From a virus (Duplodnaviria > Heunggongvirae > Uroviricota > Caudoviricetes), in IMG/VR virus record IMGVR_UViG_3300028603_000019, positions 3,877 to 67,876 of that record: a stretch of DNA of 64,000 bases, one strand, 5' to 3'. Both the position numbers and the translations under genes were made by a program. Positions 3,755 to 62,957 of the stretch are shown piece after piece. Under the pieces are notes generated by a model. The model made no database searches. It had not been told where the DNA came from and saw only the letters and a list, made by a program, of their open reading frames with translations. How positions within the stretch are numbered: position 1 is the first letter of the stretch; the number at the start of each line of letters is the position of its first letter.

Positions 3755-6194
3755 TCGTCGTAATGAAGCCTACATGGGCAACAGCCTCATCAAAAAGGCT
3801 GGTGTCACGCATAACTTTACTCCAGATCAACTCCTCGAGCTGAAGAAGTGTGCTGAAGATGTAGTATATTTTACCGAAAATTACTGCAAGATCATCACTG
3901 TTGATCAGGGAATGCAGCTATTCAAGGTATTTGATTACCAGAAGAAGATGTTGAATTCCTTCACTGATCATCGTTTCAACATCTGCCTATTGCCCCGACA
4001 AATGGGGAAATGTGTCCATGGAGATACCATGATTGAGGTGCGCCACCGACCGTCTGACGCAGCTACCAGAATGTCAGTATCAAATTTCCATGATCATTTT
4101 ACTCAACCTATTTTACCTCTCGATCCCAAGTTCATCGAATCATTTGAGGTATCGGAATGGGAAGTGATGACGGATACCGGATGGGAAGAAATTACCCATT
4201 CTCATAAGACCATACCGTATCAAATATATACCGTTGTTACTTGTAGGGGTAAACACCTCTCTTGTGCAGATGATCATATTCTTTTTAGAGCTGATTATAC
4301 CGAGATATTTGTTCGAGACTTGGTTATAGGAGATGAAGTCAGAACCACAGATGGTGTCGAGGTTATCAAGGATATTTTGATCGGATATACTTTCGAGAAT
4401 ATGTACGACTTGAGTGTAAACTCAGATAATCACCGATATTACACGAACGGATTTCTATCCCACAACTCTACCGTTGTTGCAGCATTCATTCTTCACTATG
4501 CCCTGTTCAATCCGGAAAAGACCGCTGCCGTCCTGGCAAACAAGGCGGTTACTTCTCGTGAGATCCTATCCCGGATCCAACGTATGTATGAGAATCTTCC
4601 GTGGTGGCTCCAGATGGGGGTCAAGGAATGGAATAAGGGATCCGCACTCTTTGGAAACGATAGCAAGATTCTATCCGCCGCCACTTCCTCATCATCCATT
4701 CGGGGACAATCTATCAACTGTGTCGTAGGGTCTACCCCTGTTACGGTCAGGTCAAGGGATGGACAAGTTGTGAACCTACCCATCAAAGAAGTGTATCCCG
4801 ATCTATATGATGAGATTTTGACTCAAGATGGGTTCAAGAAGTTTGATGGGATCAGGTCTTCCTACAACACGGAATTCAAGCTTCGGATAAATGACAGGAT
4901 TACCGTGACCCCCGGTCACCAATTTCGGACCGCGGAGGGAATATTCAAGCGGGCCGCATGTCTGAATATCGGTGAAATGTTGGCAAATGGGATCCGAGTG
5001 GATGCCATACAAACAGTATTCAGTGAAGAATTTGTATATGATCCTGTTAATGTGAAAGATACCGCTTCATACGTCACGGGAGATTTCATATCTCACAACT
5101 GCCTGTATCTTGACGAATTTGCTCACATCGAACAACAAATGGAATTTTGGGAATCGACCTATCCGGTTATTTCCTCGGGCGATTCCACAAAAGTAATCAT
5201 CACTTCCACACCAAAGGGCCTGGAACTGTTCCATAAAATCTATAAAGAGGCCGAAGAGGGCAAAAATTCATTTGTCCCGATTCGGGTAGAATGGTGGGAA
5301 CATCCGAAGCGTGACGAGAAATGGAAAGAGGAGACTCTCAAGAACATCGGATATGAGCAATTCAAACAAGAGTTCATGAATGAGTTCCAAGGCTCATCGG
5401 GAACACTGATATCCGGCGAGAAATTGAGAGTGCTCTCCGAGTCTAATCCTATTCATTCGGCGGAGGGTATATACCAATACAAGTCCCCGATCAAGGGAAG
5501 ATCATATGTTCTGATCGCTGATGTGGGTGAAGGGAAGGGACTTGATTATTCAGCGTTCGCTGTCATTGATGTCACTGAAATGCCGTATCAACAAGTGTGC
5601 ACCTTCCGTGATAACCTGGTCGGGCCGATTGACTATGCTGCAATCGTGTATCGCATCGCAAAGCTGTATAATGAAGCGCAGGTGATGATCGAGATCAATA
5701 GCATCGGTGTCCAGGTGTCCGACACGATGTGGATGGACTATGGCTATGAGAATATGGTATCAACTGTCTCCGCCGGAAGGAACGGAAAGAAAATCAGCTC
5801 GGGTTTCGGGAAGAACGTCGATCGTGGAATCAGGACGACGCGGGGAGTGAAGGCAACCGGATGCAGTATTTTAAAACTACTGATTGAGCAGGATCAATTG
5901 ATCCTACATGACAAGTTTACCATCGACGAATTGAAGAAGTTTGCTCGGAAGGGGAATTCGTTCGAGGCCGAGAAGGGTGCTCACGACGATATGGTGATGC
6001 CCCTGGTCCTGTTTGCGTGGATGACCGAGCAAAGTTATTTCAAAGAAATGACCGATATTGAAACATTGAGATCACTTCGAGAACGGTCGGACGAGGAACT
6101 GGATGACTCATTGTCATTCTTCTTTGTTGATAACGGAATAGATGATCCGTTTGGACGAGATGAAGAAGTTGTGGAGACATGGATGGGATGGTAA
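3747..6194 (+). CDS. Terminase large subunit, T4 gp17-like, interrupted by two inteins
   Basis: LPRQMGK, LYLDEFA, IITSTPKG, QEF, DVGEGKGLDYS, HDDMVM motifs. Confidence 0.95.
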   Translation: MHDRRNEAYMGNSLIKKAGVTHNFTPDQLLELKKCAEDVVYFTENYCKIITVDQGMQLFKVFDYQKKMLNSFTDHRFNICLLPRQMGKCVHGDTMIEVRHRPSDAATRMSVSNFHDHFTQPILPLDPKFIESFEVSEWEVMTDTGWEEITHSHKTIPYQIYTVVTCRGKHLSCADDHILFRADYTEIFVRDLVIGDEVRTTDGVEVIKDILIGYTFENMYDLSVNSDNHRYYTNGFLSHNSTVVAAFILHYALFNPEKTAAVLANKAVTSREILSRIQRMYENLPWWLQMGVKEWNKGSALFGNDSKILSAATSSSSIRGQSINCVVGSTPVTVRSRDGQVVNLPIKEVYPDLYDEILTQDGFKKFDGIRSSYNTEFKLRINDRITVTPGHQFRTAEGIFKRAACLNIGEMLANGIRVDAIQTVFSEEFVYDPVNVKDTASYVTGDFISHNCLYLDEFAHIEQQMEFWESTYPVISSGDSTKVIITSTPKGLELFHKIYKEAEEGKNSFVPIRVEWWEHPKRDEKWKEETLKNIGYEQFKQEFMNEFQGSSGTLISGEKLRVLSESNPIHSAEGIYQYKSPIKGRSYVLIADVGEGKGLDYSAFAVIDVTEMPYQQVCTFRDNLVGPIDYAAIVYRIAKLYNEAQVMIEINSIGVQVSDTMWMDYGYENMVSTVSAGRNGKKISSGFGKNVDRGIRTTRGVKATGCSILKLLIEQDQLILHDKFTIDELKKFARKGNSFEAEKGAHDDMVMPLVLFAWMTEQSYFKEMTDIETLRSLRERSDEELDDSLSFFFVDNGIDDPFGRDEEVVETWMGW
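4011..4466 (+). mobile_element. Mini-intein 1 (152 aa, no homing endonuclease) in the terminase Walker A motif
   Basis: GK|CVHGDT...YYTNGFLSHN|S: N-terminal Cys, C-terminal His-Asn, +1 Ser. Confidence 0.92.
4719..5099 (+). mobile_element. Mini-intein 2 (127 aa) just before the terminase Walker B motif
   Basis: SIN|CVVGST...YVTGDFISHN|CLYLDEF: N-terminal Cys, His-Asn end, +1 Cys. Confidence 0.92.
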
Positions 6195-50507: not shown

Positions 50508-51509
50508 CTAGTCACCGGTCTTGATGAGCCATTTATTACTGATCGCCTTGAACGAAAGACTGGGATCCATTACCGACTTGTACACGATCCCTTCCCGAAG
50601 ATTGGAGTTCAGACTTGCCCCGTCCGCAAGCTTCAGGACCTCTTCCAGAGTATCAGGCAGATGAGCCGAGGTGTAGAGCACGGGAACATGATTGAGGCCA
50701 AGATGGTCACAGATTTCTCTCCGCGCTTCACCGCTCAAATAGGAACCTTTTGTGATGTCATAGATATCATAGACATAGAAATGGTGACCCTTGAGATTCT
50801 CCCGGTTCTTCTGGATTCCCTCACCGATCAGTTCGCCCTGGAAGGCATATCCCTCGACCATTTTGTTATCCAGTGTGCGGGCCACCTTCACGAAGGTGTT
50901 ATCCTCATCCTCCAGCTTCAGTTCCAGATTTCTCGAACAAATCCGAAGCTGATCTTCCAACCGGAACACCGTCATGGAACTGCCGTCCAGCTTGACAGTG
51001 ATCTCCCACAGATGATCTTTAGGCAGATCCTCAAAAATATTCTGCGCCCGATCCTGATCGGTCTTGGGGATCAAGGAAGTTGGGAAGTTGCCCCGGACTT
51101 TTCCTTGAAGTTGGGCCGGAATCGGGGCTTCCCATTTCTGAATACCCAGTTTCTCGGTAACATCGGCACCTTCTTTCCAGGGATAATCTCGGTGGAAGCA
51201 CGAATTCAACGGCAACACCAACCCCTGGGATACCACACCGCGCAACTTCATCGTCCGCAGCCGCTCACCGAGAACACCGTTGTATTCACGAGGCTCCTTC
51301 CCCTTGGACAGAAATGGGGCAAGCTCATGTGGGACCCAGGAGTCCAGCTCAAAATAGACGGCAAAGTCTCCCGGCTTAAATTCCCCGAGCTTGGTGACGA
51401 CGTTCCAGCCTCGAACCTTCACGATCTCAAGGGCATCGGCATTTTCGTGGGGTAGCACTTCCTTGATTCGGACAACCTCGGCCAGTTTTCTTGTAATTTC
51501 AGTTCCCAT
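50508..51509 (-). CDS. RNA ligase (DRB0094-like, Rnl2 class)
   Basis: PHENADALE, FPTSLIPKTDQDRAQN, TVKLDGSS, QGELIG, REGIV, FKAISN motifs. Confidence 0.9.
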   Translation of the reverse strand: MGTEITRKLAEVVRIKEVLPHENADALEIVKVRGWNVVTKLGEFKPGDFAVYFELDSWVPHELAPFLSKGKEPREYNGVLGERLRTMKLRGVVSQGLVLPLNSCFHRDYPWKEGADVTEKLGIQKWEAPIPAQLQGKVRGNFPTSLIPKTDQDRAQNIFEDLPKDHLWEITVKLDGSSMTVFRLEDQLRICSRNLELKLEDEDNTFVKVARTLDNKMVEGYAFQGELIGEGIQKNRENLKGHHFYVYDIYDITKGSYLSGEARREICDHLGLNHVPVLYTSAHLPDTLEEVLKLADGASLNSNLREGIVYKSVMDPSLSFKAISNKWLIKTGD

Positions 51510-52408: not shown

Positions 52409-52751
52409 CCCAAATTTTTCACCTCTTTGAGTGCCTTCAAGATGGTCATCAAATACGCCCGAGCCTGACTTTGATTGTAGGACCAGAACTCATGGTCATA
52501 TCCTCGGAGATATACGATGTGGCCCAAACCAACCGGAACACAAGCGACTTCCAGATCAGATAGCGCCGTTTCGTGAAGCTTTTTGGCCGCCTCGACTGAA
52601 CCAAAAAATGCCTCGACAGCAAGAGCGCCATCGAGGCCAATACTTCCCCATTTCGGACTCGTATCATACCAGATAGTGTCGTCACGAATCAGGTCAAGTA
52701 ATTCATCGAGTTGTCGTGAAATTCCACTCATGTGAGGGTGCTTTCAAAAGT

Positions 52752-52939
52752 CGTCACGGAACGTAATGTGTACAGATTTCAGGTCGGAAGGAACGCTCTT
52801 TGTGACGGGGTCGATATGCTACCGCGGAGTCTAAACGGTTCATGTGCAATGTTGGAAGGAAGACTCGTTGCGACAGTGCCCGTGTATAGGGCGCGGAGAG
52901 TATGACATTTCCAATATTCAAAGGAACCCTCTTTGCGCC
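52752..52939 (-). ncRNA. Tandem array of three 50-56 nt structured hairpin units
   Basis: Each unit: outer stem, AAA/AAC bulge, GAG-NNT inner stem, TCCTT(C/T), variable loop; compensatory changes between units. Confidence 0.7.
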
Positions 52940-52946
52940 AAAATAC

Positions 52947-54650
52947 TTAGTCGGTGAGAAGCAGCTCCTCTAGCCGATCATATGAGAAACCAATATAGGT
53001 CAAATCATGATCCACGATTTCCTCGGTTTCCAGAAGGTAGTCAATATCCAGGGCATCCAACAGTTTCTTTACTGTCCACTGATTGCACAGTGCCCGTTTG
53101 ATTACCGGATTATTTTCACCAAAGTTGGCAGCCCGATTGGAAATCCTTCCCATCCAAGCAACATAGGTATTACCACGAACAAATCCGATCACCATCCCGC
53201 GGGAATTGAGCTTGATCTTCTCTCGAAATTTCAGGTCACCGATCCATTTATCTTTCCCGTCTGAACCAGCGACCACTTCCATCTCACAACCCTGGTTACC
53301 GCTATAGATGTTTACAAACAATCCATATGGTTTGGCACCAGACGAGGTCATGAACTCCATTGCGCCTTTTGGAGCGTTGGTAACGTCTCCAGAGAAGTGA
53401 ATCTCACCGGAGTTATAGTAGCCCCAGCCGGTTCTATTCCCTCTTGTATCGACGGTAGAGAGATCAAGGTCACGAGCACCCCAATCATTCTCCCAATACA
53501 TCCCGGAAGAGATAGTGCGACCATCCGGTGTTACTTCGGTTCCGAACGGAACCTGTCCGACGGTCTGTTTTCGGGAGATCGGAAGACCATAGTCTACCCA
53601 TTTGTCCAATAGAACCGTTTTGGACTTCAGTTTCGGTTGCAGTCGATTCTTGAGTTCGCCAAGTATCAGCCGTTCAGCTCTCTCAATCGTCGGGATCAGG
53701 TGTTGCGGTCGCCCATCTTGGCACCAAACTTTGCCGTTTCGAACCACGAAGGAATCGACCGGATTCTGGGTCTTCTTGTAGGCCAGGAGATTCAAACCCT
53801 TGAACAGACTCCGCGTGGAAACACCCGAGAGCTGTTTTCGTTTCAGGTTACCTGCTAGTGCAGCATTGACGAAGTAGGAATTCAAATTCGGGACAATCGG
53901 AACATGGTCCCTCTTACTCATGCGAGCGATCCGGTTGATCACACTCTTGAGATCACGATTCTTCCGCGATGCCATCAAGATTTTCTTGTGACGATTGAAA
54001 ACCTGGGCAAGGACCCGAGCGTGAAGCCCGAAGAAATTGACCGGCAGGGCTTCCGAATTCCGAACCTTCTCGATCACCTCTTTGGACTTGATCAGCAGAA
54101 GCTCATCAGTCGCCTTGTAGACGATATATCGAACGGCATCATCACCATTTGTGAATATGTCGCGGGTCGGATCAAACAGGATCACCCGAGCCTCGTTGTT
54201 CTTCACCTTGGAAATATCCACACGGATGCCATAGCGGTCGATGATAGCCTTTAGGGCGACCACGTCCATAATCGGAGCATTGGAATACAGAAGATCCTGA
54301 ACCTTGATCTGGAGTTCAGCTTCGGTGATCCCACGAATGAACGTGAACCCGACAGTCTTTCCGCCATCAAATTCCAGGAGAATATTTCGGTGATCCAGGC
54401 CATAGACCAGGAAATAATGGGCAAGCTGCTTGGCCATCAGGTCTTCCGGGGTGGAATTCTGAAGTTCGGCCTTGGACCACATTGTCCGCATATCCAGCGG
54501 CTTGAATTCTTCGATAAGGAGACTGACTTGTTCTTGATCAGGAATGAAGTCAGTTACCACGCCATATTCGACAAGGGAGTAGTCGATGATCGACCGATTG
54601 ACCTTATCAGAAACCACTTGGGCCTTGAATAACTTTAGCACTTCTTGCAT
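52947..54650 (-). CDS. 568-aa protein with helical N-terminus and TerD-like C-terminal domain
   Basis: QLAHYFLVYG; C-terminal DLDLS...SGDVTNAPKGA.EF...VNIYSG resembles TerD. Confidence 0.7.
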   Translation of the reverse strand: MQEVLKLFKAQVVSDKVNRSIIDYSLVEYGVVTDFIPDQEQVSLLIEEFKPLDMRTMWSKAELQNSTPEDLMAKQLAHYFLVYGLDHRNILLEFDGGKTVGFTFIRGITEAELQIKVQDLLYSNAPIMDVVALKAIIDRYGIRVDISKVKNNEARVILFDPTRDIFTNGDDAVRYIVYKATDELLLIKSKEVIEKVRNSEALPVNFFGLHARVLAQVFNRHKKILMASRKNRDLKSVINRIARMSKRDHVPIVPNLNSYFVNAALAGNLKRKQLSGVSTRSLFKGLNLLAYKKTQNPVDSFVVRNGKVWCQDGRPQHLIPTIERAERLILGELKNRLQPKLKSKTVLLDKWVDYGLPISRKQTVGQVPFGTEVTPDGRTISSGMYWENDWGARDLDLSTVDTRGNRTGWGYYNSGEIHFSGDVTNAPKGAMEFMTSSGAKPYGLFVNIYSGNQGCEMEVVAGSDGKDKWIGDLKFREKIKLNSRGMVIGFVRGNTYVAWMGRISNRAANFGENNPVIKRALCNQWTVKKLLDALDIDYLLETEEIVDHDLTYIGFSYDRLEELLLTD

Positions 54651-56112: not shown

Positions 56113-56132
56113 GTCGTGATCCTCCTGTTATG

Positions 56133-56206
56133 ACCTCCCAGGGCGATTCGAACGCCCGACCGCTCGGTCCGAAGCCGAGTGCTCTAGTCCGCTGAGCTAT
56201 GGGAGG
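56133..56206 (-). tRNA. tRNA-Arg(TCG)
   Basis: Cloverleaf, loop CTTCGGA, no encoded CCA. Confidence 0.85.
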
Positions 56207-56208
56207 GG

Positions 56209-56286
56209 TGGTCCTGCGGTGAAGATTCGAACTTCATCTTTCTGGTCCACAGCCAGACGTGCTTACCTTTGACACTACTGCGCAGG
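56209..56286 (-). tRNA. tRNA-His(GTG), A73, 2-nt insertion at the base of the acceptor stem
   Basis: Loop CTGTGGA, T-arm TTCGAAT, CCA end. Confidence 0.75.
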
Positions 56287-56293
56287 ATAGTTA

Positions 56294-56328
56294 TGGCGGA
56301 AGCGGAGAGGATCGAACTCTATGGCGGT
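56294..56328 (-). pseudogene. 3' fragment of a Ser-type tRNA (4-bp T stem, G73-CCA) fused to an IS right end
   Basis: AGAG-TTCGATC-CTCT-CCGCTTCC-GCCA with no matching 5' half found. Confidence 0.6.
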
Positions 56329-56371
56329 GTGAACTACCTGGAAACTGAAGATTTCCAGGCTTCCTCGGTCA
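56329..56371 (-). mobile_element. IS200/IS605-type right end, near-identical to 1851-1893
   Basis: 42/43 nt identity. Confidence 0.65.
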
Positions 56372-56545
56372 CTACAAGAGAGCCAAGGAACTTTTGACGA
56401 TTCAACGATACATATCTAGCAGGAGCTTGCGCTCCAACCCCGATAGAGGTATCTCCCCGTCCGTGACTTTCCGGCGTCCCACCGGTAGTTGGTCTCAATA
56501 GGTAGAATTATGGAACTTGGCTTTCGTTCCATGAGATATTATTTA

Positions 56546-56597
56546 GTCGATCCGTATCCGACAAACTAAAGATTTGCCGGTTTTGGATCACGTCCTT
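56546..56597 (-). mobile_element. IS200/IS605-type right-end variant related to 15652-15699
   Basis: 37/40 nt identity; hairpin retained. Confidence 0.55.
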
Positions 56598-56898
56598 GTA
56601 TAAGCGCCACGATCCGTTTAGCAAACGGTCTTGAGCACCAAGCTCAATTCTCACTTCCGATAGAAATTGGGATTATTTCTTATGGCGTTACTCCGATCAG
56701 CTAATTTACCAAACGCAGTAGGACTTTCAAGATAGGGTTCCAGTTTAGAGGTGGCTGCCGTAAATTCGTTGTCTGAAATCTTCCCCTCTTGATGGGCCTT
56801 TAGAAGTTTGTTTAATTGCATTGATGCCGCGCGGGGAGACATATAGGTTGTTCTAAAAGATTCAAAGGTAGGAAGGGCCATATTTTTCTCCTAAATTG

Positions 56899-56990
56899 TG
56901 GCGGTGCTCAGAAGAATCGAACTCCACACGGGGTTAACCGTGCCACCCGCTTTCGAGGCGGAGTCCTGCGACCAACAGGAATTGAACACC
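56899..56990 (-). tRNA. tRNA-Ser(CGA) with Sec-like 8/4 fold (allo-tRNA-like)
   Basis: 8-bp acceptor GGTGTTCA/TGAGCACC, 4-bp T stem, long D stem around TGGT, long variable arm, G73-CCA. Confidence 0.7.
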
Positions 56991-56995
56991 CTGAT

Positions 56996-57625
56996 CTATT
57001 TACATCGAATCAAGAATCTTCGTGCTTGAAATTTGTTCTCTCTACCCCAAGCATCACGTGCCGCAATCCAGGTAGCCAAATCTTGCTCTTGAGGGTCGTA
57101 CCAAATCACTTTCTTGAAATTCATGTCGGCAAAACCAACTTGGTAACCCTCGCGGGCCGCTCTTGTCATTTGAGTAATCCAGAAGGCTTTACCCCAATGA
57201 GTTTGAAGAGAATCGGACATAATGGTCCCATATTTCGGAAGCAGGTAGCCAAAGAACATCTTCCGGGTTAGATCAACAGCAGCGACTGAATTCATATCTC
57301 TCCAGAGCTTCACCTGGGTGACATACTGCCCGTGCTTGCCAAAGTTGTTTCGCTTAAAGTTGACCAGATATTCCACTTTACCGGAAGTCTTGTTGATCAG
57401 GACCAGATTTCCTGCCGCGTCATTTTCTGTGCGAAACAGGATTGTCTGCGGAGTATCGTGAAAGACCTCTTTTTGCTTCTTGAGGAACTCAACAGCTTTT
57501 GCTTTGTTCTTGACCTCGTTTCCAAGATTGAAGTCCACATCATCGACCAGAGCCGGTGATTCCCAAAGTAGGTCGCCCGATCTTCCTATCATATCTTGGG
57601 TAAATTCACTGAATGTTTGTCTCAT
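56996..57625 (-). CDS. Putative internal protein
   Basis: True start MRQTFSEF (the longer ORF overlaps tRNA-Thr); intact paralog of 54665-54931. Confidence 0.65.
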   Translation of the reverse strand: MRQTFSEFTQDMIGRSGDLLWESPALVDDVDFNLGNEVKNKAKAVEFLKKQKEVFHDTPQTILFRTENDAAGNLVLINKTSGKVEYLVNFKRNNFGKHGQYVTQVKLWRDMNSVAAVDLTRKMFFGYLLPKYGTIMSDSLQTHWGKAFWITQMTRAAREGYQVGFADMNFKKVIWYDPQEQDLATWIAARDAWGRENKFQARRFLIRCK

Positions 57626-57642
57626 GGCTTTTCCTTGAATTT

Positions 57643-57718
57643 TGGTGCCGATGACAAGAGTCGAACTCGCAACCTTCTCCTTACGAGGGAGCTGCTCTGC
57701 CATTTGAGCTACATCGGC
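57643..57718 (-). tRNA. tRNA-Thr(CGT)
   Basis: Cloverleaf, loop CTCGTAA, CCA. Confidence 0.9.
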
Positions 57719-57720
57719 AA

Positions 57721-57790
57721 GATGCCCCTAGGTCTCGAACCTGGATTTCATGGGCCAGAGCCATGCGTCCTACCGATTAGACGAAGGGGC
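57721..57790 (-). pseudogene. tRNA-Gln(CTG) pseudogene
   Basis: Loop CTCTGGC; 3' acceptor strand shortened. Confidence 0.6.
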
Positions 57791-58327
57791 AAATGTGAAG
57801 GCGGGACCTACGTGATCACCAAAAGATTTTTTGAAGGAAGATCCTTTGCCTTCAGATATTTCACCGAGATTGCACTTTGGCATATGCCTCTTGAGCAATC
57901 TCAACTTCCTTCTCCTTGGTCTTGCCGAGGATCAGAAGTAGTAGGGTCGAGAACAGGCCGAACAGGAAGCCTCCAAAGGCCCATCCAACGGCATTCCGAC
58001 CACGCAGATCGGCAAGATAGTAGTTGAGCCAAGCTACAAGGCCGGCCACAGCAAGCATTACGAGAATTTCCATTTTCACTCTCCGTTTGATACATTACAA
58101 GATTCAGTCCAAAGTGCCCAAGCACCAGCCGCGCACAACGCGATAGCGGATCCCAATAGGATCCCAGGAAGCACCACCATGTAGGCAATGCCCAAGATCA
58201 AGCTCAGGCCAAAAGACGGTTGCGGCTTGACAATGCTGAATGAAATTGCCGAGCAGAGGAACCACCAGGCAATGACCATCCAAGTTACAGCTTCAAGTTC
58301 CATTCAAACTTCTCCGCAAAAGTTTTG

Positions 58328-58401
58328 TGCCCCACCCCGGACTCGAACCGGGAACATCCGCATTTTGAGTGCGGCGACTCTACCAATTGGCCTAGCAGGG
58401 C
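58328..58401 (-). tRNA. tRNA-Leu(CAA), short variable arm
   Basis: Loop CTCAAAA, A73. Confidence 0.8.
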
Positions 58402-58471
58402 AAAAGAATATGACGGAACCTATTTGACCATGCGAAAAGTGTTTTGAAGGAAGGCTCTTTGTCACAATAAC

Positions 58472-58921
58472 TCAATAATAAACATCAACTCCTTGAATAT
58501 CCCGATCAAGGGCTAATGGAATTAACCATTTCAGATCGGAGACCACGGTCAACTCGTGAAGCTCACCAACCGAATACCATCCGACCGGTTCTTCCGGGCC
58601 TTCTGGATTGGTCACAGACTCGAATTTGTTTGTCCAGGTCCTGAAGTAATGGACGATATAATCCTCACCAGTATCATAGTTGGTTCCCTTGACTGTACAA
58701 AATCTTTCCCAACCGATCCAGTAAATTCCAGTTTCTTCCTGAAATTCCCTGGTCATTGCTACCATCCGATGTTCTGGCCAATCCACATGTCCGCCAATGG
58801 CATTCAGCTTGCCGCGGACACCCTCGGGTCCCTTGGTCTTCGACTTATGAATTAGAAGAACCATGATATCGGCAGTTACGGGATCTTCCGCGAACATAAA
58901 ACCAGCGACATATTCTTTCAT
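58472..58921 (-). CDS. Nudix hydrolase
   Basis: GGHVD...E...AMTREFQEETGI Nudix box. Confidence 0.88.
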   Translation of the reverse strand: MKEYVAGFMFAEDPVTADIMVLLIHKSKTKGPEGVRGKLNAIGGHVDWPEHRMVAMTREFQEETGIYWIGWERFCTVKGTNYDTGEDYIVHYFRTWTNKFESVTNPEGPEEPVGWYSVGELHELTVVSDLKWLIPLALDRDIQGVDVYY

Positions 58922-58972
58922 GAATTCAGTCCCGCGTCCATATCAATGATTTCATTTTTCCTTTGTAGGTTA

Positions 58973-59001
58973 ATCATAACTCAAGAACATCTAGATGTCA
59001 A
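58973..59001 (-). promoter_or_regulatory. sigma70-like early promoter
   Basis: TTGACA-17-TATGAT. Confidence 0.7.
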
Positions 59002-59016
59002 CCCGAAAACTTCAAG

Positions 59017-59087
59017 AGCGACCAGAGGGAATCGAGCCCTCGCCTCCTGCTTGGCAAGCAGGTGCACTGCCATTATGCGATGGTCGC
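59017..59087 (-). tRNA. tRNA-Gly(GCC)
   Basis: Loop TTGCCAA; T-loop CTCGATT atypical. Confidence 0.8.
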
Positions 59088-59088
59088 G

Positions 59089-59165
59089 TGGTGCCGCCGG
59101 TGGGACTCGAATCCACAACACATGCGCTCTCGACGCATGAAGTCTACCAATTGCTTCACGTCGGC
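59089..59165 (-). tRNA. tRNA-Leu(GAG), short variable arm
   Basis: Loop TCGAGAG, A73-CCA. Confidence 0.75.
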
Positions 59166-59172
59166 AAAATTT

Positions 59173-59248
59173 GTAGCCCTGGTCGGACTCGAGTCCGACA
59201 TACACCTCATTTTGAGTGAGATAGGAATACCAATTTCCATCACAGGGC
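59173..59248 (-). tRNA. tRNA-Leu(CAA) second copy, degenerate, short arm
   Basis: Loop CTCAAAA; T-loop CTCGAGT; U73. Confidence 0.6.
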
Positions 59249-59355
59249 CGAAATTAGACGTAAACAGCCTTGATAAGGCTGTTCTTTGGAAGAGATCAAA
59301 CTTCCCGAACACTCGTGTAACTACCATGGTGCACCATCTAAACCGTTATATTCCG

Positions 59356-59430
59356 TGGAGCCTATCGGGGTCGAACCGATCACCTCAAGCTTGCAAAACT
59401 TGCGCTCTCCCTACCATGAGCTAAGGCCCC
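59356..59430 (-). tRNA. tRNA-Ala(TGC)
   Basis: G3:U70, loop TTTGCAA. Confidence 0.9.
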
Positions 59431-59635
59431 GAAATTGACAATGCAAGGAGACCGGCGACAGGCCAAAATCCCATCTCGTATTGTCAAAGTTTGATCCCGT
59501 TCCTGCTTCTATGCCGTTCGGCGATGAAGACCTGCTCATCGTCTTACAAAAGGCTCCACAGGCATCACATCGGTGGATGATCATGCCTAGACTTCGGTGC
59601 GGCCCTAGGACGAATCCCGCACTTCTCATTCTATT

Positions 59636-59711
59636 TGGTCAGGGTGGTGGGGCTCAAACCCACGACTTCCGGGCTCCAAAGCCGGCACTCTATCAACTGA
59701 GCTACACCCTG
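59636..59711 (-). tRNA. tRNA-Pro(TGG)
   Basis: Loop TTTGGAG; T-loop TTTGA atypical; CCA. Confidence 0.8.
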
Positions 59712-59726
59712 AAATTTTCATTTTCG

Positions 59727-59801
59727 TCTCCCAGGAGGGATTTGAACCCCCGATCTCCTCCTTCCGAGGGAGGCAGCTTGACCAGACTTGCCCACTGAGA
59801 G
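59727..59801 (-). tRNA. tRNA-Pro(CGG)
   Basis: Loop CTCGGAA. Confidence 0.85.
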
Positions 59802-59938
59802 AAATGGGAGGGAGATGTCTCTGAAGCATTTCATCTCCTTCCTTTCAACCTGTGCCAGTCTCAACTTATCTTCCTAGTGTGGAAGTCGCGCCGATCAGGC
59901 AGCACGGTCTTAGAGTGACTTCTATGGTTCACCCACTG

Positions 59939-60157
59939 TCAAACTTCATCCGTATTACTATTCCAATACGAATATTCTTTCACGATGATCATCGGTTCTT
60001 TGAAGTCCACGTTGAAGACTTCTACCCGATCATACTAAATCACCAACTTGTTACAACGCACTTCCAGAAACGGCGAGACTTCATCGCTATGTGAAAATCT
60101 TACGACAGAATCCACGGGGAACTCAACAGTCTCTGGATATTGATCAGGAAAATTCAT
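59939..60157 (-). pseudogene. Small gene with an in-frame TAG at codon 41
   Basis: RBS AAGGA; MNFPDQYPE...KLVI*YDRVEVF...DEV*. Confidence 0.55.
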
Positions 60158-60178
60158 GGTTGTTTCCTTTCAAAAATT

Positions 60179-60255
60179 TGGCACCCCCGACAGGACTCAA
60201 ACCTGTAACCCAGAGATTAGAAATCTCTTGCTCTATTCAATTGAGCTACGGAGGC
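60179..60255 (-). tRNA. tRNA-Arg(TCT)
   Basis: Loop TTTCTAA; T-loop TTTGA; CCA. Confidence 0.85.
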
Positions 60256-60550
60256 AAAACTCGGCGCCACGCAATAAAGGTAAAATTGCTGCGCCGTGTC
60301 GGGGTTGATGAGACATGCTATACTCGCGCACTAACCGACTAATCGCAACACATTGGTGATAGTGGTATCACTGGGCGTGTCAACCCATTTCCTTACTTCA
60401 TGTATCATAGAAGAAACATTGAAGATCCAGGCCGGTGAGGTATCTGCCCCGCAAGGCGAGGTTGCCCATTCTCCGCTTACACCTTGGCCAAAGGCGCCCA
60501 CGCGACACGTCTGCCGATCGAGGCTTTCCTTACCTGGAAACTTCAAATTC

Positions 60551-60626
60551 TGGTCGGTCCCAAGGGAATCGAACCCTATTCTCGGGTGCTTCAAACCCGC
60601 GTGGTCACCAGTTCCACCAAAGACCG
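60551..60626 (-). tRNA. tRNA-Phe(GAA)
   Basis: Loop TTGAAGC; CCA. Confidence 0.8.
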
Positions 60627-60635
60627 AATATTGAG

Positions 60636-60709
60636 TTGCGAGAGGTTGGATTTGCACCAACGACCTCCAGAATATGAGTCTGGCGAGCTAACTCCTGCTC
60701 CACTCCGCA
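60636..60709 (-). tRNA. Initiator-type tRNA-Met(CAT), degenerate
   Basis: GTGGAGCAG...AGCTCG...CTCAT pattern of tRNA-fMet; T-loop TGCAAAT. Confidence 0.7.
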
Positions 60710-60710
60710 G

Positions 60711-60785
60711 ACCTCCCGGGGCGACTTGAACGCCCAACCTCTGGCTCCGCAAGCCAGTGCTCTATTCCAGTTGAGCTACGGAAGG
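60711..60785 (-). tRNA. tRNA-Arg(GCG)
   Basis: Loop TTGCGGA in an Arg-type body. Confidence 0.8.
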
Positions 60786-60792
60786 GGAAATT

Positions 60793-61161
60793 TCAGATTT
60801 TCTTGATCCGGTCGAGGACATATCTCACATCATAGAAACTGCCCTCAAGTTTCCACACTTTCATCAGCAAATCGTGATTAATCTTGATCCAGTCATAGAT
60901 GTCTTCCAACGTGGAAGTTTTCAAATTTGCACGATTCTGTCCGATAACTCTTGGTTCATGAGAAACCGTGATGATAGTGTATTCAGAATTCCCGGGATGG
61001 CCAGCATAGACCTTGATTCTCGGCCCGTGTCTGGAACCTTTCCCGTGTGAGATGTAGATTACCTTGTCCACGCCAGTGATATCCGACGAGACATTTCCCA
61101 TTTCATCCAGAACTTCGGCTCTCATAGCCTGTTCAAGAAGAAAATCTCGAAATGGTATCAT
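60793..61161 (-). CDS. DUF4160-like protein, putative internal protein
   Basis: Starts MIPFRDFLLE; HGPRIKV...WIKIN..LL..W. Confidence 0.55.
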   Translation of the reverse strand: MIPFRDFLLEQAMRAEVLDEMGNVSSDITGVDKVIYISHGKGSRHGPRIKVYAGHPGNSEYTIITVSHEPRVIGQNRANLKTSTLEDIYDWIKINHDLLMKVWKLEGSFYDVRYVLDRIKKI

Positions 61162-61314
61162 GGTGGAATCTCCGATCAATTGAGAGCGGATAGTGGGGAT
61201 CGCAATTATACAGTTTCCTGCTCATCGGTTCCACGATACGAAAGAGCCATATCACTTCCGCGACTGTAATCGGGTAATTTCTCCGATGATGTCCTCTACT
61301 CATTGAGAACTTCG

Positions 61315-61396
61315 AGCGACCGGCGGGGATCGAACCCGCGGAACCTATTCGCCTCTTGCTTGGAAGGCAAGTGCTCTACCACTGAGCTACGGTCGC
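61315..61396 (-). tRNA. tRNA-Gly(TCC) with enlarged variable region
   Basis: Loop CTTCCAA; about 10 extra nt before the T-arm. Confidence 0.75.
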
Positions 61397-61411
61397 ATGG
61401 TTAACTTTGTT

Positions 61412-61485
61412 TGGCAGGGGCACCAGGAATCAAACCCGGACCAGGAGGGTTGGAAGCTCCTGTGCTATCACTACACCATACCCCT
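61412..61485 (-). tRNA. tRNA-Trp(CCA)
   Basis: AGGGG acceptor, G73-CCA, loop TTCCAAC; T-loop TTTGA. Confidence 0.8.
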
Positions 61486-61901
61486 CAAAAGTTCTGTCTC
61501 GTGCCTCTCGGCAGTCTCGATCTAAGGTCGTCTCTACATTGACTAATATGACGTTTCGGATGTCATATTGGTTGTATCTCATAACATACAACAGCGATCC
61601 TACTTTTTGCCGGTGAATCAACTGAAGTTGTGTTTATCAGTCGATTCGAATATTTGGTGGAACATGACTGTAACCATCAAATAGATAGATTATAGTTTAA
61701 GAAGCACGAGACAGAAATTGGTCCGCCCTAGGTCAACCGTCAAAAGGACAGCCAACCTTGTCTTAATCATGATCGACGGACAATCACGAAGCATCAGATT
61801 GCACATAATTTAGGATGGGACACGCAATCTGCAAATCCCCATCCCCGCCGAACGGCTTTAGACCGCCGGGAATAATGTTGGTAATCTTGATCCAACTTTG
61901 T

Positions 61902-61976
61902 TGGTAGGTCCTATCCGAATCGAACGGATGCGTGGTGCTGTGTAAAAGCACTGCCTTACCACTTGGCGAAGGACCC
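61902..61976 (-). tRNA. tRNA-Val(TAC), atypical body
   Basis: Loop TTTACAC, A73-CCA. Confidence 0.7.
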
Positions 61977-62065
61977 AAATAATCAACTCCTGAATCGAAC
62001 AGGCCACTCGGCTAATGCCAAGCTGAGACTCCACTCTCGGCGTGCGCTGCGCCTTGTTGAAACTA

Positions 62066-62139
62066 TGGCAGAGTGGACGGGACTCGAACCCGCCTTTCCG
62101 GTTAGACAGACCGGAGCCTTCCCCGACGGCAACCACTCC
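62066..62139 (-). tRNA. tRNA-Asp(GTC)
   Basis: Loop CTGTCTA, G73-CCA. Confidence 0.85.
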
Positions 62140-62147
62140 ATATTCTG

Positions 62148-62222
62148 TACCCCGGGCGAGACTTGAACTCACAACCTTCTCCTTATGAGGGAGCTGCTAC
62201 TGACCGATTGAGCTACCAGGGC
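62148..62222 (-). tRNA. tRNA-Met/Ile2(CAT)
   Basis: Loop CTCATAA. Confidence 0.85.
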
Positions 62223-62274
62223 AAAAATTGAGCAACCGCGACTTATGGATTTGTCATCCCGCACGGTCAATTAT

Positions 62275-62342
62275 GAGTTCGGCTCAACTGCGCACTCTCA
62301 TATGCAGCGACTTAGCCTGTTGATGGCGAACAGGTACCGTAT
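62275..62342 (-). ncRNA. Three-way-junction motif, copy 1 (directly 3' of tRNA-Gln)
   Basis: ATACGGTA-hairpin-CTAAGTCG-hairpin-GAGCCGA. Confidence 0.6.
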
Positions 62343-62419
62343 TGGCTGGGAGGGGCGGACTCGAACCGCCAATCTCACGGAGTCAAAGGCCGGGATCTTA
62401 CCAATTAGACGACCTCCCA
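62343..62419 (-). tRNA. tRNA-Gln(TTG)
   Basis: TGGGAGG acceptor, loop CTTTGAC, CCA. Confidence 0.8.
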
Positions 62420-62424
62420 ATGTT

Positions 62425-62509
62425 TGGTGGGAAGCAGTGGAATCGAACCACACCCTTTTACAGAACGGTTTTACAGACCGCGTATGGCTACCAGCCAATG
62501 ATACTTCCC
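62425..62509 (-). tRNA. tRNA-Tyr(GTA)
   Basis: Loop CTGTAAA, long variable arm, unusual D-arm. Confidence 0.8.
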
Positions 62510-62515
62510 AAGTGT

Positions 62516-62591
62516 TGGTGCCTCCACTCAGCCTCGAACTGAGATTGCCGGGTTACAAAGCCGGTGTTCTGCCAAATTGAACTATGAAGGC
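62516..62591 (-). tRNA. tRNA-Thr(TGT)
   Basis: Loop TTTGTAA, CCA. Confidence 0.85.
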
Positions 62592-62596
62592 AAATT

Positions 62597-62673
62597 TGGT
62601 CCCCTCGGCGAGATTCGAACTCACAACCTCCTGATTCTAAGTCAGGCGACTATGTCATTTTGCCTACGAGGGG
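62597..62673 (-). tRNA. tRNA-Leu(TAG), short variable arm
   Basis: Loop CTTAGAA, A73-CCA. Confidence 0.8.
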
Positions 62674-62685
62674 CAATATTTTCAG

Positions 62686-62779
62686 GGGCGATGCCCAGGA
62701 AATCGAATCCTGGTTATGTGGTTGCCGCCACACTCTCCGTTCGGCAAAACGCGAGATTCACTCACCAGAGGCATTCCCC
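62686..62779 (-). pseudogene. Irregular Sec-like/allo-type tRNA remnant
   Basis: CTC-TGGT-GAG D-arm, long variable arm, TTCGATT T-arm; anticodon arm irregular. Confidence 0.45.
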
Positions 62780-62783
62780 TTTG

Positions 62784-62857
62784 TCTTCCCAGCAGAACTT
62801 GAATCTGCAACCTGCGGTTTAGGAAACCGCTGCTCTTTCCATTTGAGCTATGGGAAG
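62784..62857 (-). tRNA. tRNA-Arg(CCT)
   Basis: Loop TTCCTAA. Confidence 0.85.
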
Positions 62858-62884
62858 TTCGGTCTTTCGTCTACATTAGTCAAG

Positions 62885-62957
62885 CTCCCCTCCCCGGCCA
62901 CGATCCAGGAACCTTCAGATTAACAATCTGCTGCTCTACCAATTGAGCTAGAGGGGA
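62885..62957 (-). tRNA. tRNA-Asn(GTT), degenerate T-arm
   Basis: TCCCCTC acceptor, loop TTGTTAA, T-loop ATCGTGG. Confidence 0.7.

Follow-up and report, generated by a model that had tools for sequence, protein, structure and literature searches.

The stretch of DNA analysed here, called the window, comprises 64,000 nucleotides (64 kb; positions 3,877 to 67,876) of the IMG/VR virus record IMGVR_UViG_3300028603_000019, a phage genome of 210.5 kb that was judged complete. It contains, on the minus strand, a gene for a protein of 567 residues and a set of small RNA hairpins, three of which (units 1–3) stand in tandem directly behind the gene (Table 1). The TAA stop codon of the gene is at 52949–52947, and unit 1 begins 7 nt further on the same strand. 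The initial annotation had placed three units 7 nt after the stop and on this strand, which agrees with the present analysis, except that its coordinates for the third unit, placed here at 52753–52806, were one base off. The gene which it had described is also present; the length of 568 residues counted the stop codon.

Units 1–3 share one anatomy. The outer stem has 5 bp and the inner stem 6 bp; between them, AAA or AAC bulges out against a lone C, and the loop, of 24, 28 and 28 nt, respectively, opens with UCCUU(U/C). The part that is constant in the family, hereafter the handle, comprises a 5-bp stem with G-C and C-G as its closing pairs, a 3-nt A-rich bulge against a single C, a 6-bp stem that ends in G-C and U-A, and the UCCU with which the loop begins. 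A degenerate pattern of this core gave five matches in the window (four exact, one with one mismatch) against 0.53 expected, and no shuffle reached five. This search, together with a covariance model built from the window copies (R1; R2 is a later model), revealed two more copies, units 4 and 5, in a tRNA gene array. A structure-aware scan of the whole phage genome found no sixth copy and no handle with a long insert. Between the 567-residue protein gene and units 1–3, a consensus scan gave neither a promoter-like nor a terminator-like site; because no such site separates them, we infer that the gene and the units are co-transcribed.

The fold is supported by covariation. In an independent MAFFT alignment of the four strongest window copies, all of the pair cells (44/44) can pair and five of the 11 pairs change on both sides; when the partners were slid, pairing fell to 32–49%. 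In 65 distinct units from other loci, 97.5% of the pair cells pair (27–43% in the slid-partner controls) and 10 of the 11 pairs covary, with 222 double-sided changes, in an alignment that was fitted to the covariance model and thus favours pairing. The conclusion is nevertheless safe, because the effect is large and the four-copy alignment is independent of the model. Among 85 distinct units, G·U or U·G is found 36 times and A·C or C·A eight times. This means that selection acts on RNA of the sense strand, namely the strand of the gene. The minimum free energy of the whole 216-nt stretch is unremarkable (z −0.47), so that the evidence is covariation and not stability. In 68 aligned units, the third A of the bulge, the G-C and U-A pairs closing the inner stem, the UCCU at the start of the loop and the A-C of the 3' side are near-invariant, and the bulged C is retained in 66. 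The base after UCCU differs between clades, with UCCUA in those at 30% identity and UCCUU in the present one. The hairpins thus constitute, on comparative evidence, a structured RNA family under RNA-level selection on the sense strand, and the initial proposal of real structured RNAs with covarying stems holds for both the window copies and those of other loci.

This family appears to be uncatalogued, since no model of Rfam 15 matches the handle. A scan of the window at the Rfam gathering scores gave only tRNAs, a scan of the array region at E values up to 10 gave four chance-level matches, none of which was on the units, and a nucleotide search against phage records gave no match. Several known elements were also considered for the units, namely a K-turn, a T-loop, box C/D, a CRISPR-repeat mimic, an anti-Shine-Dalgarno sequence, and a tmRNA (transfer-messenger RNA) resume site; judged from sequence, the conserved bases that they require are absent or covarying.

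The RNA follows the gene. One search gave more than 340 relatives of the 567-residue protein, and an exhaustive profile search gave 1347 cluster representatives at 50% identity. The covariance model finds the RNA beside the homologous gene in about 55 other loci, within about 500 nt and on the strand of the gene. In the first seven loci, from five IMG/VR phages (42–53% identity) and the Synechococcus phages S-CRM01 and S-CBWM1 (28–29%), the matches directly flank the homologous gene in 7/7. Among the metagenome loci, 30 of 33 carry one to five units, none further than about 460 nt from the gene; of the remaining three, two have no more than 2–21 nt of DNA past the gene, and one is truncated at its 5' end. 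All three distant members (3/3) have arrays of one to four units upstream of the gene. Units are also located beside the gene in 15 of 16 loci from binned genomes (metagenome-assembled genomes, MAGs), among which are those of Saprospiraceae, Flavobacteriaceae, Roseivirgaceae, Calditrichia, and other groups. Three of these binned loci have ordinary chromosomal genes as neighbours, for a penicillin-binding protein, an amidase, and an SprB adhesin; therefore the module of gene and RNA is not restricted to phages. No RtcB neighbour was seen in the three bacterial loci that were annotated.

Every match listed at the reporting thresholds lies on the strand of the gene, and the array is downstream of the gene in the close clade, upstream in the distant clades, and on both sides in S-CRM01. 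When whole genomes were scanned (records of 42–382 kb), the significant matches were all beside the gene, save one or two extra copies in each of three genomes. In this phage and in S-CBWM1 these copies belong to the tRNA array; in the genome designated G005 they are at two sites some 12 kb upstream of the gene. None of seven neighbouring window proteins recurs in a tblastn search of 60 related loci, and for this reason the RNA is the sole conserved companion of the gene. Across the sequences compared, the linkage of RNA and gene thus appears near-obligate. This agrees with the initial suggestion that the hairpins are tied to the protein: nearly every homologous locus with flanking DNA has an array.

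The protein itself is not assigned by family libraries. Pfam, PHROG, NCBIfam, and PADLOC gave nothing credible for it or for its relatives, and a profile search of the PDB sequences with the protein family gave nothing at E values up to 10. The AlphaFold2 model (predicted local distance difference test score, pLDDT, 81) has a C-terminal β-sandwich. The closest folds are those of TerD, with Z values of 8.9 (2qz7) and 8.6 (2kxt) over 130 residues at root-mean-square deviations of 3.4–3.7, the two top rows of 48,161 chains. Clusters of the AlphaFold Database (AFDB) named TerD family protein match at E values of 1e-18 to 1e-12 and have the same long N-terminal extension. The Pfam TerD model (PF02342) does not match the 567-residue protein, and matches its controls. 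The protein is thus predicted to be TerD-like at the level of fold only: the term used in the initial annotation is borne out by the structure models (Z 8.9, 8.6) and not by sequence. With regard to the calcium-binding acidic motifs of TerD, DLDLS and SGD are invariant in the protein family alignment (A1). Actinobacterial RING-domain proteins (MXAN_6230/SCO0854 family) are among the structural neighbours in the Atlas and AFDB.

When the N-terminal 348 residues were modelled by themselves, the pLDDT was 87.6. Their best fold matches are generic helical bundles (Z ≤7.1), with weak PPR, HEAT, and Puf rows at probabilities below 0.45; neither an RNA-binding repeat fold nor a new fold is read from these weak and generic helical matches. 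A Foldseek search of the PDB with the whole model gave nothing meaningful. Invariant basic and polar residues cluster in the helical part: Asn219-Arg220-His221-Lys222, Arg243, Ser245, Lys246, His249, and Arg304-Asn305-Gly306-Lys307. This cluster is compatible with nucleic-acid binding, and nothing more. The R-x5-H stretch from Arg243 to His249 suggested a HEPN RNase, which was dropped as it had no supporting fold or profile match. The TROVE- or Nop-like relationship that had been proposed for the protein was not recovered by Pfam, six-frame, or fold searches. Pfam finds no TROVE domain in the 567-residue protein or in 26 relatives; PF05731 matches none of the six frames of the phage genome, and its Deinococcus and Bacteroides controls match; and no Ro60 structure is among the listed matches of the protein models, although fold evidence alone is weak. 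A Ro60-like ring was likewise not confirmed for the 567-residue protein. Library scans recognised no transposase, nuclease, recombinase, or other effector family in the protein.

In contrast to the handle, the loop is variable, and its composition is constrained. Over the first half of the loop in the 85 distinct units, G is scarce and A/U abundant; A predominates at the last five positions, which end in a pyrimidine. UGG is found in the loops of 35 units (7.4 expected) and GGA in 27 (8.4 expected), a 3–5 fold excess over shuffles. The UCC at the loop start is able to pair with the GGA element in about one-third of the units, as in unit 1, where UUCC can pair with GGAA. In relatives, the plain loop of the first unit after the gene often gives way to a GC-rich hairpin that is capped by a UUCG-type loop.

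A larger replacement is seen in one relative, locus L054. Its fourth unit is 127 nt long, and the handle closes a module that aligns to positions 23–85 of the Rfam model of YrlA, a bacterial Y RNA (36 bits, E 7.6e-7), with no non-canonical pair. All the helices are intact: the anticodon-stem equivalent, the T arm, the closed acceptor stem, and the D arm. This module is taken as real because ARAGORN finds no tRNA in L054 and because the module sits inside one handle. It should be mentioned that the same model gives a match of 26.8 bits in the tRNA array of the window, where it runs from the T arm of tRNA-Leu(TAG) into the D arm of the tRNA that follows. This match, the only one of the YrlA model in the phage genome, is an artefact of tandem tRNAs, and it cautions against weak YrlA matches in tRNA arrays. 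In two Saprospiraceae MAG loci (L060 and L066), a tRNA-shaped RNA of 114–115 nt is located between units upstream of the gene. These two RNAs score 50–58 bits on the Rfam tRNA model and are not called by ARAGORN; an insert of about 45 nt with AAAGGAUUUUCCUAAAG takes the place of the anticodon arm and resembles a handle built into a tRNA body. The RNA family thus joins a constant handle to exchangeable payloads, which is the logic of Y RNAs.

Table 1. Positions of the RNA units, the partner gene, and surrounding features. Features marked with an L number are in related loci.
Feature	Position	Strand	Remarks
Partner protein gene	52947..54650	(-)	Open reading frame (ORF), 567 aa + stop codon; N-terminal alpha/beta and helical region (about residues 1–345), predicted C-terminal TerD-fold beta sandwich (about 374–520)
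RNA unit 1	52890..52939	(-)	Outer stem GGCGC/GCGCC, AAA bulge opposite C, inner stem GAGGGU/ACUCUC, 24-nt loop; covariance model 63.9 bits
RNA unit 2	52821..52874	(-)	Common scaffold, AAC bulge, 28-nt loop; 67.6 bits
RNA unit 3	52753..52806	(-)	Common scaffold, 28-nt loop; 62.4 bits
RNA unit 4	58410..58465	(-)	6 nt after NUDIX gene stop, 8 nt before tRNA-Leu(CAA); 62.8 bits
RNA unit 5	57797..57853	(-)	7 nt after small-ORF stop, 4–5 nt before tRNA-Gln(CTG); 32.2 bits with R1, 45.6 with R2
Array of 26 tRNA genes	56132..62957	(-)	Contains units 4 and 5; ARAGORN/Rfam tRNA; context
NUDIX hydrolase gene	58472..58921	(-)	
tRNA called Ser(CGA)	56899..56991	(-)	ARAGORN; 92 nt
YrlA-model match	62563..62631	(-)	Tandem-tRNA artefact
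Terminator-like hairpin	52610..52637	(-)	With T run, first one 3' of the array; consensus scan only
RNA ligase gene	50508..51509	(-)	PF09414 + PHA02142-type OB domain; 1.2 kb downstream, same strand; local context only
Permuted tmRNA near module	L031:2327-2688, L011:6873-7239, L008:2467-2777		In relatives
GOLLD RNA (RF02032) near module	L019:4936-5397, L009:5756-6218		187–192 bits; about 0.6–0.7 kb downstream of the hairpin array
Skipping-rope RNA (RF02924) near module	L009:222-313		
tRNA-shaped RNA between units	L060:4698-4812, L066:4539-4652		Saprospiraceae MAG loci

The module is part of larger islands of structured RNA. In 17 of 23 scanned loci, tRNA genes are found on the same strand in the 2–4-kb flanks, often as arrays on both sides, and the homologous gene is in the middle of a tRNA array in both S-CRM01 and S-CBWM1. 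A permuted alpha-type tmRNA directly follows the hairpin array in several phages, L031 among them, and GOLLD and skipping-rope RNAs are also found, at a distance of no more than a few kb from the TerD-fold gene (Table 1). In L031, L028, and L035, the predicted start of the tmRNA overlaps the 3' half of the last hairpin unit.

Several other features of the window are located around the module. The genes of the NUDIX hydrolase and the RNA ligase share a minus-strand block with the tRNA array and are cargo of the RNA-repair type. Their adjacency to the module is not conserved in other loci, and no homologue of the RNA ligase is found beside the module in 60 related loci. The terminator-like hairpin 3' of the array is GC-rich, with 12 bp and a T run, and it is inside an ORF of 108 residues (52731–52405); either a transcript ends within this ORF or the ORF call is wrong. 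In the tRNA array, the gene called Ser(CGA) is considered to have an unusual shape, since the Rfam tRNA-Sec model (43.1 bits; cut-off 47) outscores the general tRNA model on it.

It is highly probable that the units and the 567-residue protein form a functional RNA–protein partnership. By analogy with Ro60 and its Y RNAs, a stable particle of the same kind seems the favoured form of this partnership, with fair rather than high confidence. In such a particle, the handle would be the docking site for the helical and TerD-fold protein encoded alongside, and the loop would be the payload that varies between copies: it is plain and A/U-rich here, and relatives have stable hairpins or a tRNA-like domain of the YrlA type. 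This plan would be that of Ro60 with Y RNAs, with a protein that is unrelated or unrecognisably diverged, and the docked RNA might act as an adaptor or regulator, as Y RNAs do for Ro60. Units 1–3 would be transcribed with the gene and units 4 and 5 with the tRNA array; the latter two might be freed by tRNA processing, for example by the RNase P cut 4–8 nt downstream of each. During infection, the targets of the particle would most likely be tRNA or other stable RNAs, with a part in their quality control, repair, turnover, or protection. This role in the handling of tRNA or stable RNA is deduced from the habitat and the tRNA-like payload and is put forward tentatively, as it is appreciably short of an even chance.

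We infer physical binding, processing into discrete RNAs of 50–60 nt, and the biological role, and some observations weigh against the particle. No RNA-binding domain is recognised in the protein, and the matches of its N-terminal part are weak and generic helical ones. No RNA binding is known for TerD domains. Long-term adjacency of genes does not always mean physical partnership. The YrlA match of L054 scores 36 bits, below the Rfam gathering score of 69, and in 11 of 14 control genomes this model likewise has matches under its threshold, the weak ones at tRNA junctions. Finally, all three unit-bearing sites in the window begin 6–7 nt past a stop codon, a position which would fit a 3'-end stabiliser too.

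Five other explanations were compared with the particle, and each explains less. In the first, the hairpins are cis-acting operators rather than independent RNAs: the protein or a host factor would bind them in the gene's own mRNA and control its translation, termination, or stability. The single transcription unit of gene and units, with no promoter or terminator between them, would suit such a control, and in the distant members and the bacterial loci the array is indeed in the leader, 20–520 nt before the start codon. However, the array switches between downstream and upstream positions from clade to clade and is on both sides in S-CRM01, extra copies are located far from the gene among tRNA genes, and one to five units per array with different payloads, including a tRNA-like one, are unexpected for a leader or operator. 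Cis-acting operators are thus considered unlikely.

The second explanation, put forward in the initial annotation, is that the units are tRNA mimics whose loops imitate anticodon loops and soak up host anticodon nucleases. It derives from the heptamers TTGGAAA, TTGCACA, and CTGAAAT, which are literally present in the loops. However, they have no closing stem and fall on the semi-conserved UGG/GGA element, and they fit Y-U-NNN-R, which is expected about once per loop by chance as a rough estimate, not a computed one. Neither a tRNA cloverleaf nor a 7-nt loop closed by an anticodon-type stem was found in the five units by ARAGORN, Rfam, or folding; the Rfam tRNA and YrlA models do not match them. 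The location of the module in tRNA arrays, the RNA ligase nearby in this phage, and the tRNA-like domain in the L054 unit would accord with a decoy. However, the YrlA-type module has the handle in place of the anticodon arm, and so it has no anticodon loop, and the module also stands alone in bacterial chromosomes. Anticodon mimicry by the five units is therefore abandoned, and decoys in general seem quite improbable.

A repeat/spacer guide array had also been suggested, in which the variable loops would pair with nucleic-acid targets and direct the protein there. A constant scaffold, differing loops, and tandem order are what such an array would show. The loops, however, are biased in composition and partly conserved, and their best non-self match in the rest of the 210-kb phage genome (24.3 bits) does not exceed those of shuffles (up to 28.2 bits). 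Moreover, self-paired hairpins or a tRNA-like fold stand in for many of the loops, and neither a nuclease domain nor that of another effector was recognised in the protein. The guide array did not survive these comparisons and is rated as very improbable.

Equally doubtful are generic hairpins for processing or 3'-end protection of a polycistronic tRNA or mRNA precursor, with no special tie to the protein. The start of the window arrays 6–7 nt past a stop codon and the end of units 4 and 5 at 4–8 nt before a tRNA are as such hairpins would have them, but an invariant bulge and loop sequence across phages and bacteria, and genome-wide confinement to the flank of one gene family, are not expected of them. 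Palindromes recognised by the protein at the DNA level for mobility or recombination, like REP elements with RAYT transposases, might account for repeated hairpins that flank one gene and for the presence of gene and array in unrelated phage lineages and bacteria, but they are scarcely credible, because the 36 to 8 ratio of G·U to A·C is not favoured by a double-stranded or either-strand DNA hairpin, the orientation always follows the gene, and no transposase, nuclease, or recombinase family was recognised.

The particle thus remains the reading that accounts for most of the observations. A wider proposal, which falls a little short of an even chance, is that it represents a second, independent class of Y-RNA-type particle. 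In this class, a helical and TerD-fold protein unrelated to Ro60 would hold interchangeable small RNAs through the UCCU bulged-stem handle; it would be widespread in large phages and several bacterial phyla, and in the course of infection phages would use it, from within their tRNA/tmRNA/GOLLD islands, for the survey, repair, or shielding of stable RNAs. To our knowledge, Ro60 with Y RNA is the only well-studied bacterial particle of its kind. The purpose of the islands of tRNAs and orphan structured RNAs in large phages is still debated. The present data link an RNA family that Rfam lacks to a protein family of at least 1,300 sequence clusters, for which Pfam, PHROGs, NCBIfam, and PADLOC have no entry. 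Experiments can be designed directly from so strong a comparative signal, as it defines the candidate docking handle, the bases that do not vary in it, and naturally occurring variants of the payload. Cultured systems are available (S-CRM01 g174 and S-CBWM1 gp22), and therefore the role of phage RNA islands, and whether Y-RNA-type adaptors arose more than once, can now be tested.

When known systems are compared, CRISPR-like arrays have near-identical direct repeats and target-matching spacers, whereas the constant parts of the present units covary across the loop instead of repeating. TerD proteins (PF02342) belong to tellurite-resistance and stress operons. The C-terminal part of about 150 residues of the present protein is modelled as a TerD β-sandwich, but no ter operon partner (TerB, TerC, or TelA) is near the gene, the domain is fused to an N-terminal region of about 345 residues, and partnership with RNA is not a known property of TerD. 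A literature search gave no paper joining YrlA and TerD, and nothing of relevance on TerD and the tRNA clusters of phages. In their survey of jumbo phages, Iyer and colleagues mention TROVE proteins and stand-alone TerD, not the present pairing.

The closest system is that of Ro60 (Rsr; TROVE and vWA domains) with Y RNA and YrlA/YrlB (RF02553). In both systems small RNAs, often in several copies, adjoin one large protein gene on the same strand. For YrlA, the best model matches lay on the strand of Ro60 and no more than 4 kb from it (Chen et al. 2014, PMC4201824), and the present units are within about 0.5 kb of the TerD-fold gene. Both RNAs have a stem made from the two RNA ends, a conserved bulged helix as the presumed docking site, and a variable module; both proteins consist of a helical region and a second globular domain; and both systems are found in bacteria and in phages with many tRNAs. 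One member of the present family, in L054, even has a complete YrlA-type permuted tRNA-like domain, although none of the units of this phage has a tRNA-like domain, which at least one RNA per genome would have in the Y RNA/YrlA family. The differences are also clear. By Pfam, the present protein has neither TROVE nor vWA, and its second domain has the TerD fold. Y RNAs are 80–130 nt long with a long terminal stem and a large internal loop, whereas the present units are 50–57 nt long with an 11-bp interrupted stem and one terminal loop, and they form tandem arrays of up to five or more. The handle differs in sequence and does not match the YrlA model; on the five units, the Rfam Y RNA (RF00019) and YrlA (RF02553) models give no match even at E values up to 10. 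The initial description of the units as Y-RNA-like is thus retained as the best fit among known systems, with the L054 unit in its favour, and is not upheld by any Rfam match. GOLLD, skipping-rope, and phage tmRNA share a common genomic habitat with the present RNA; these are single large RNAs without a fixed protein partner gene, whereas the RNA described here is small, has several copies, and goes with a single family of proteins.

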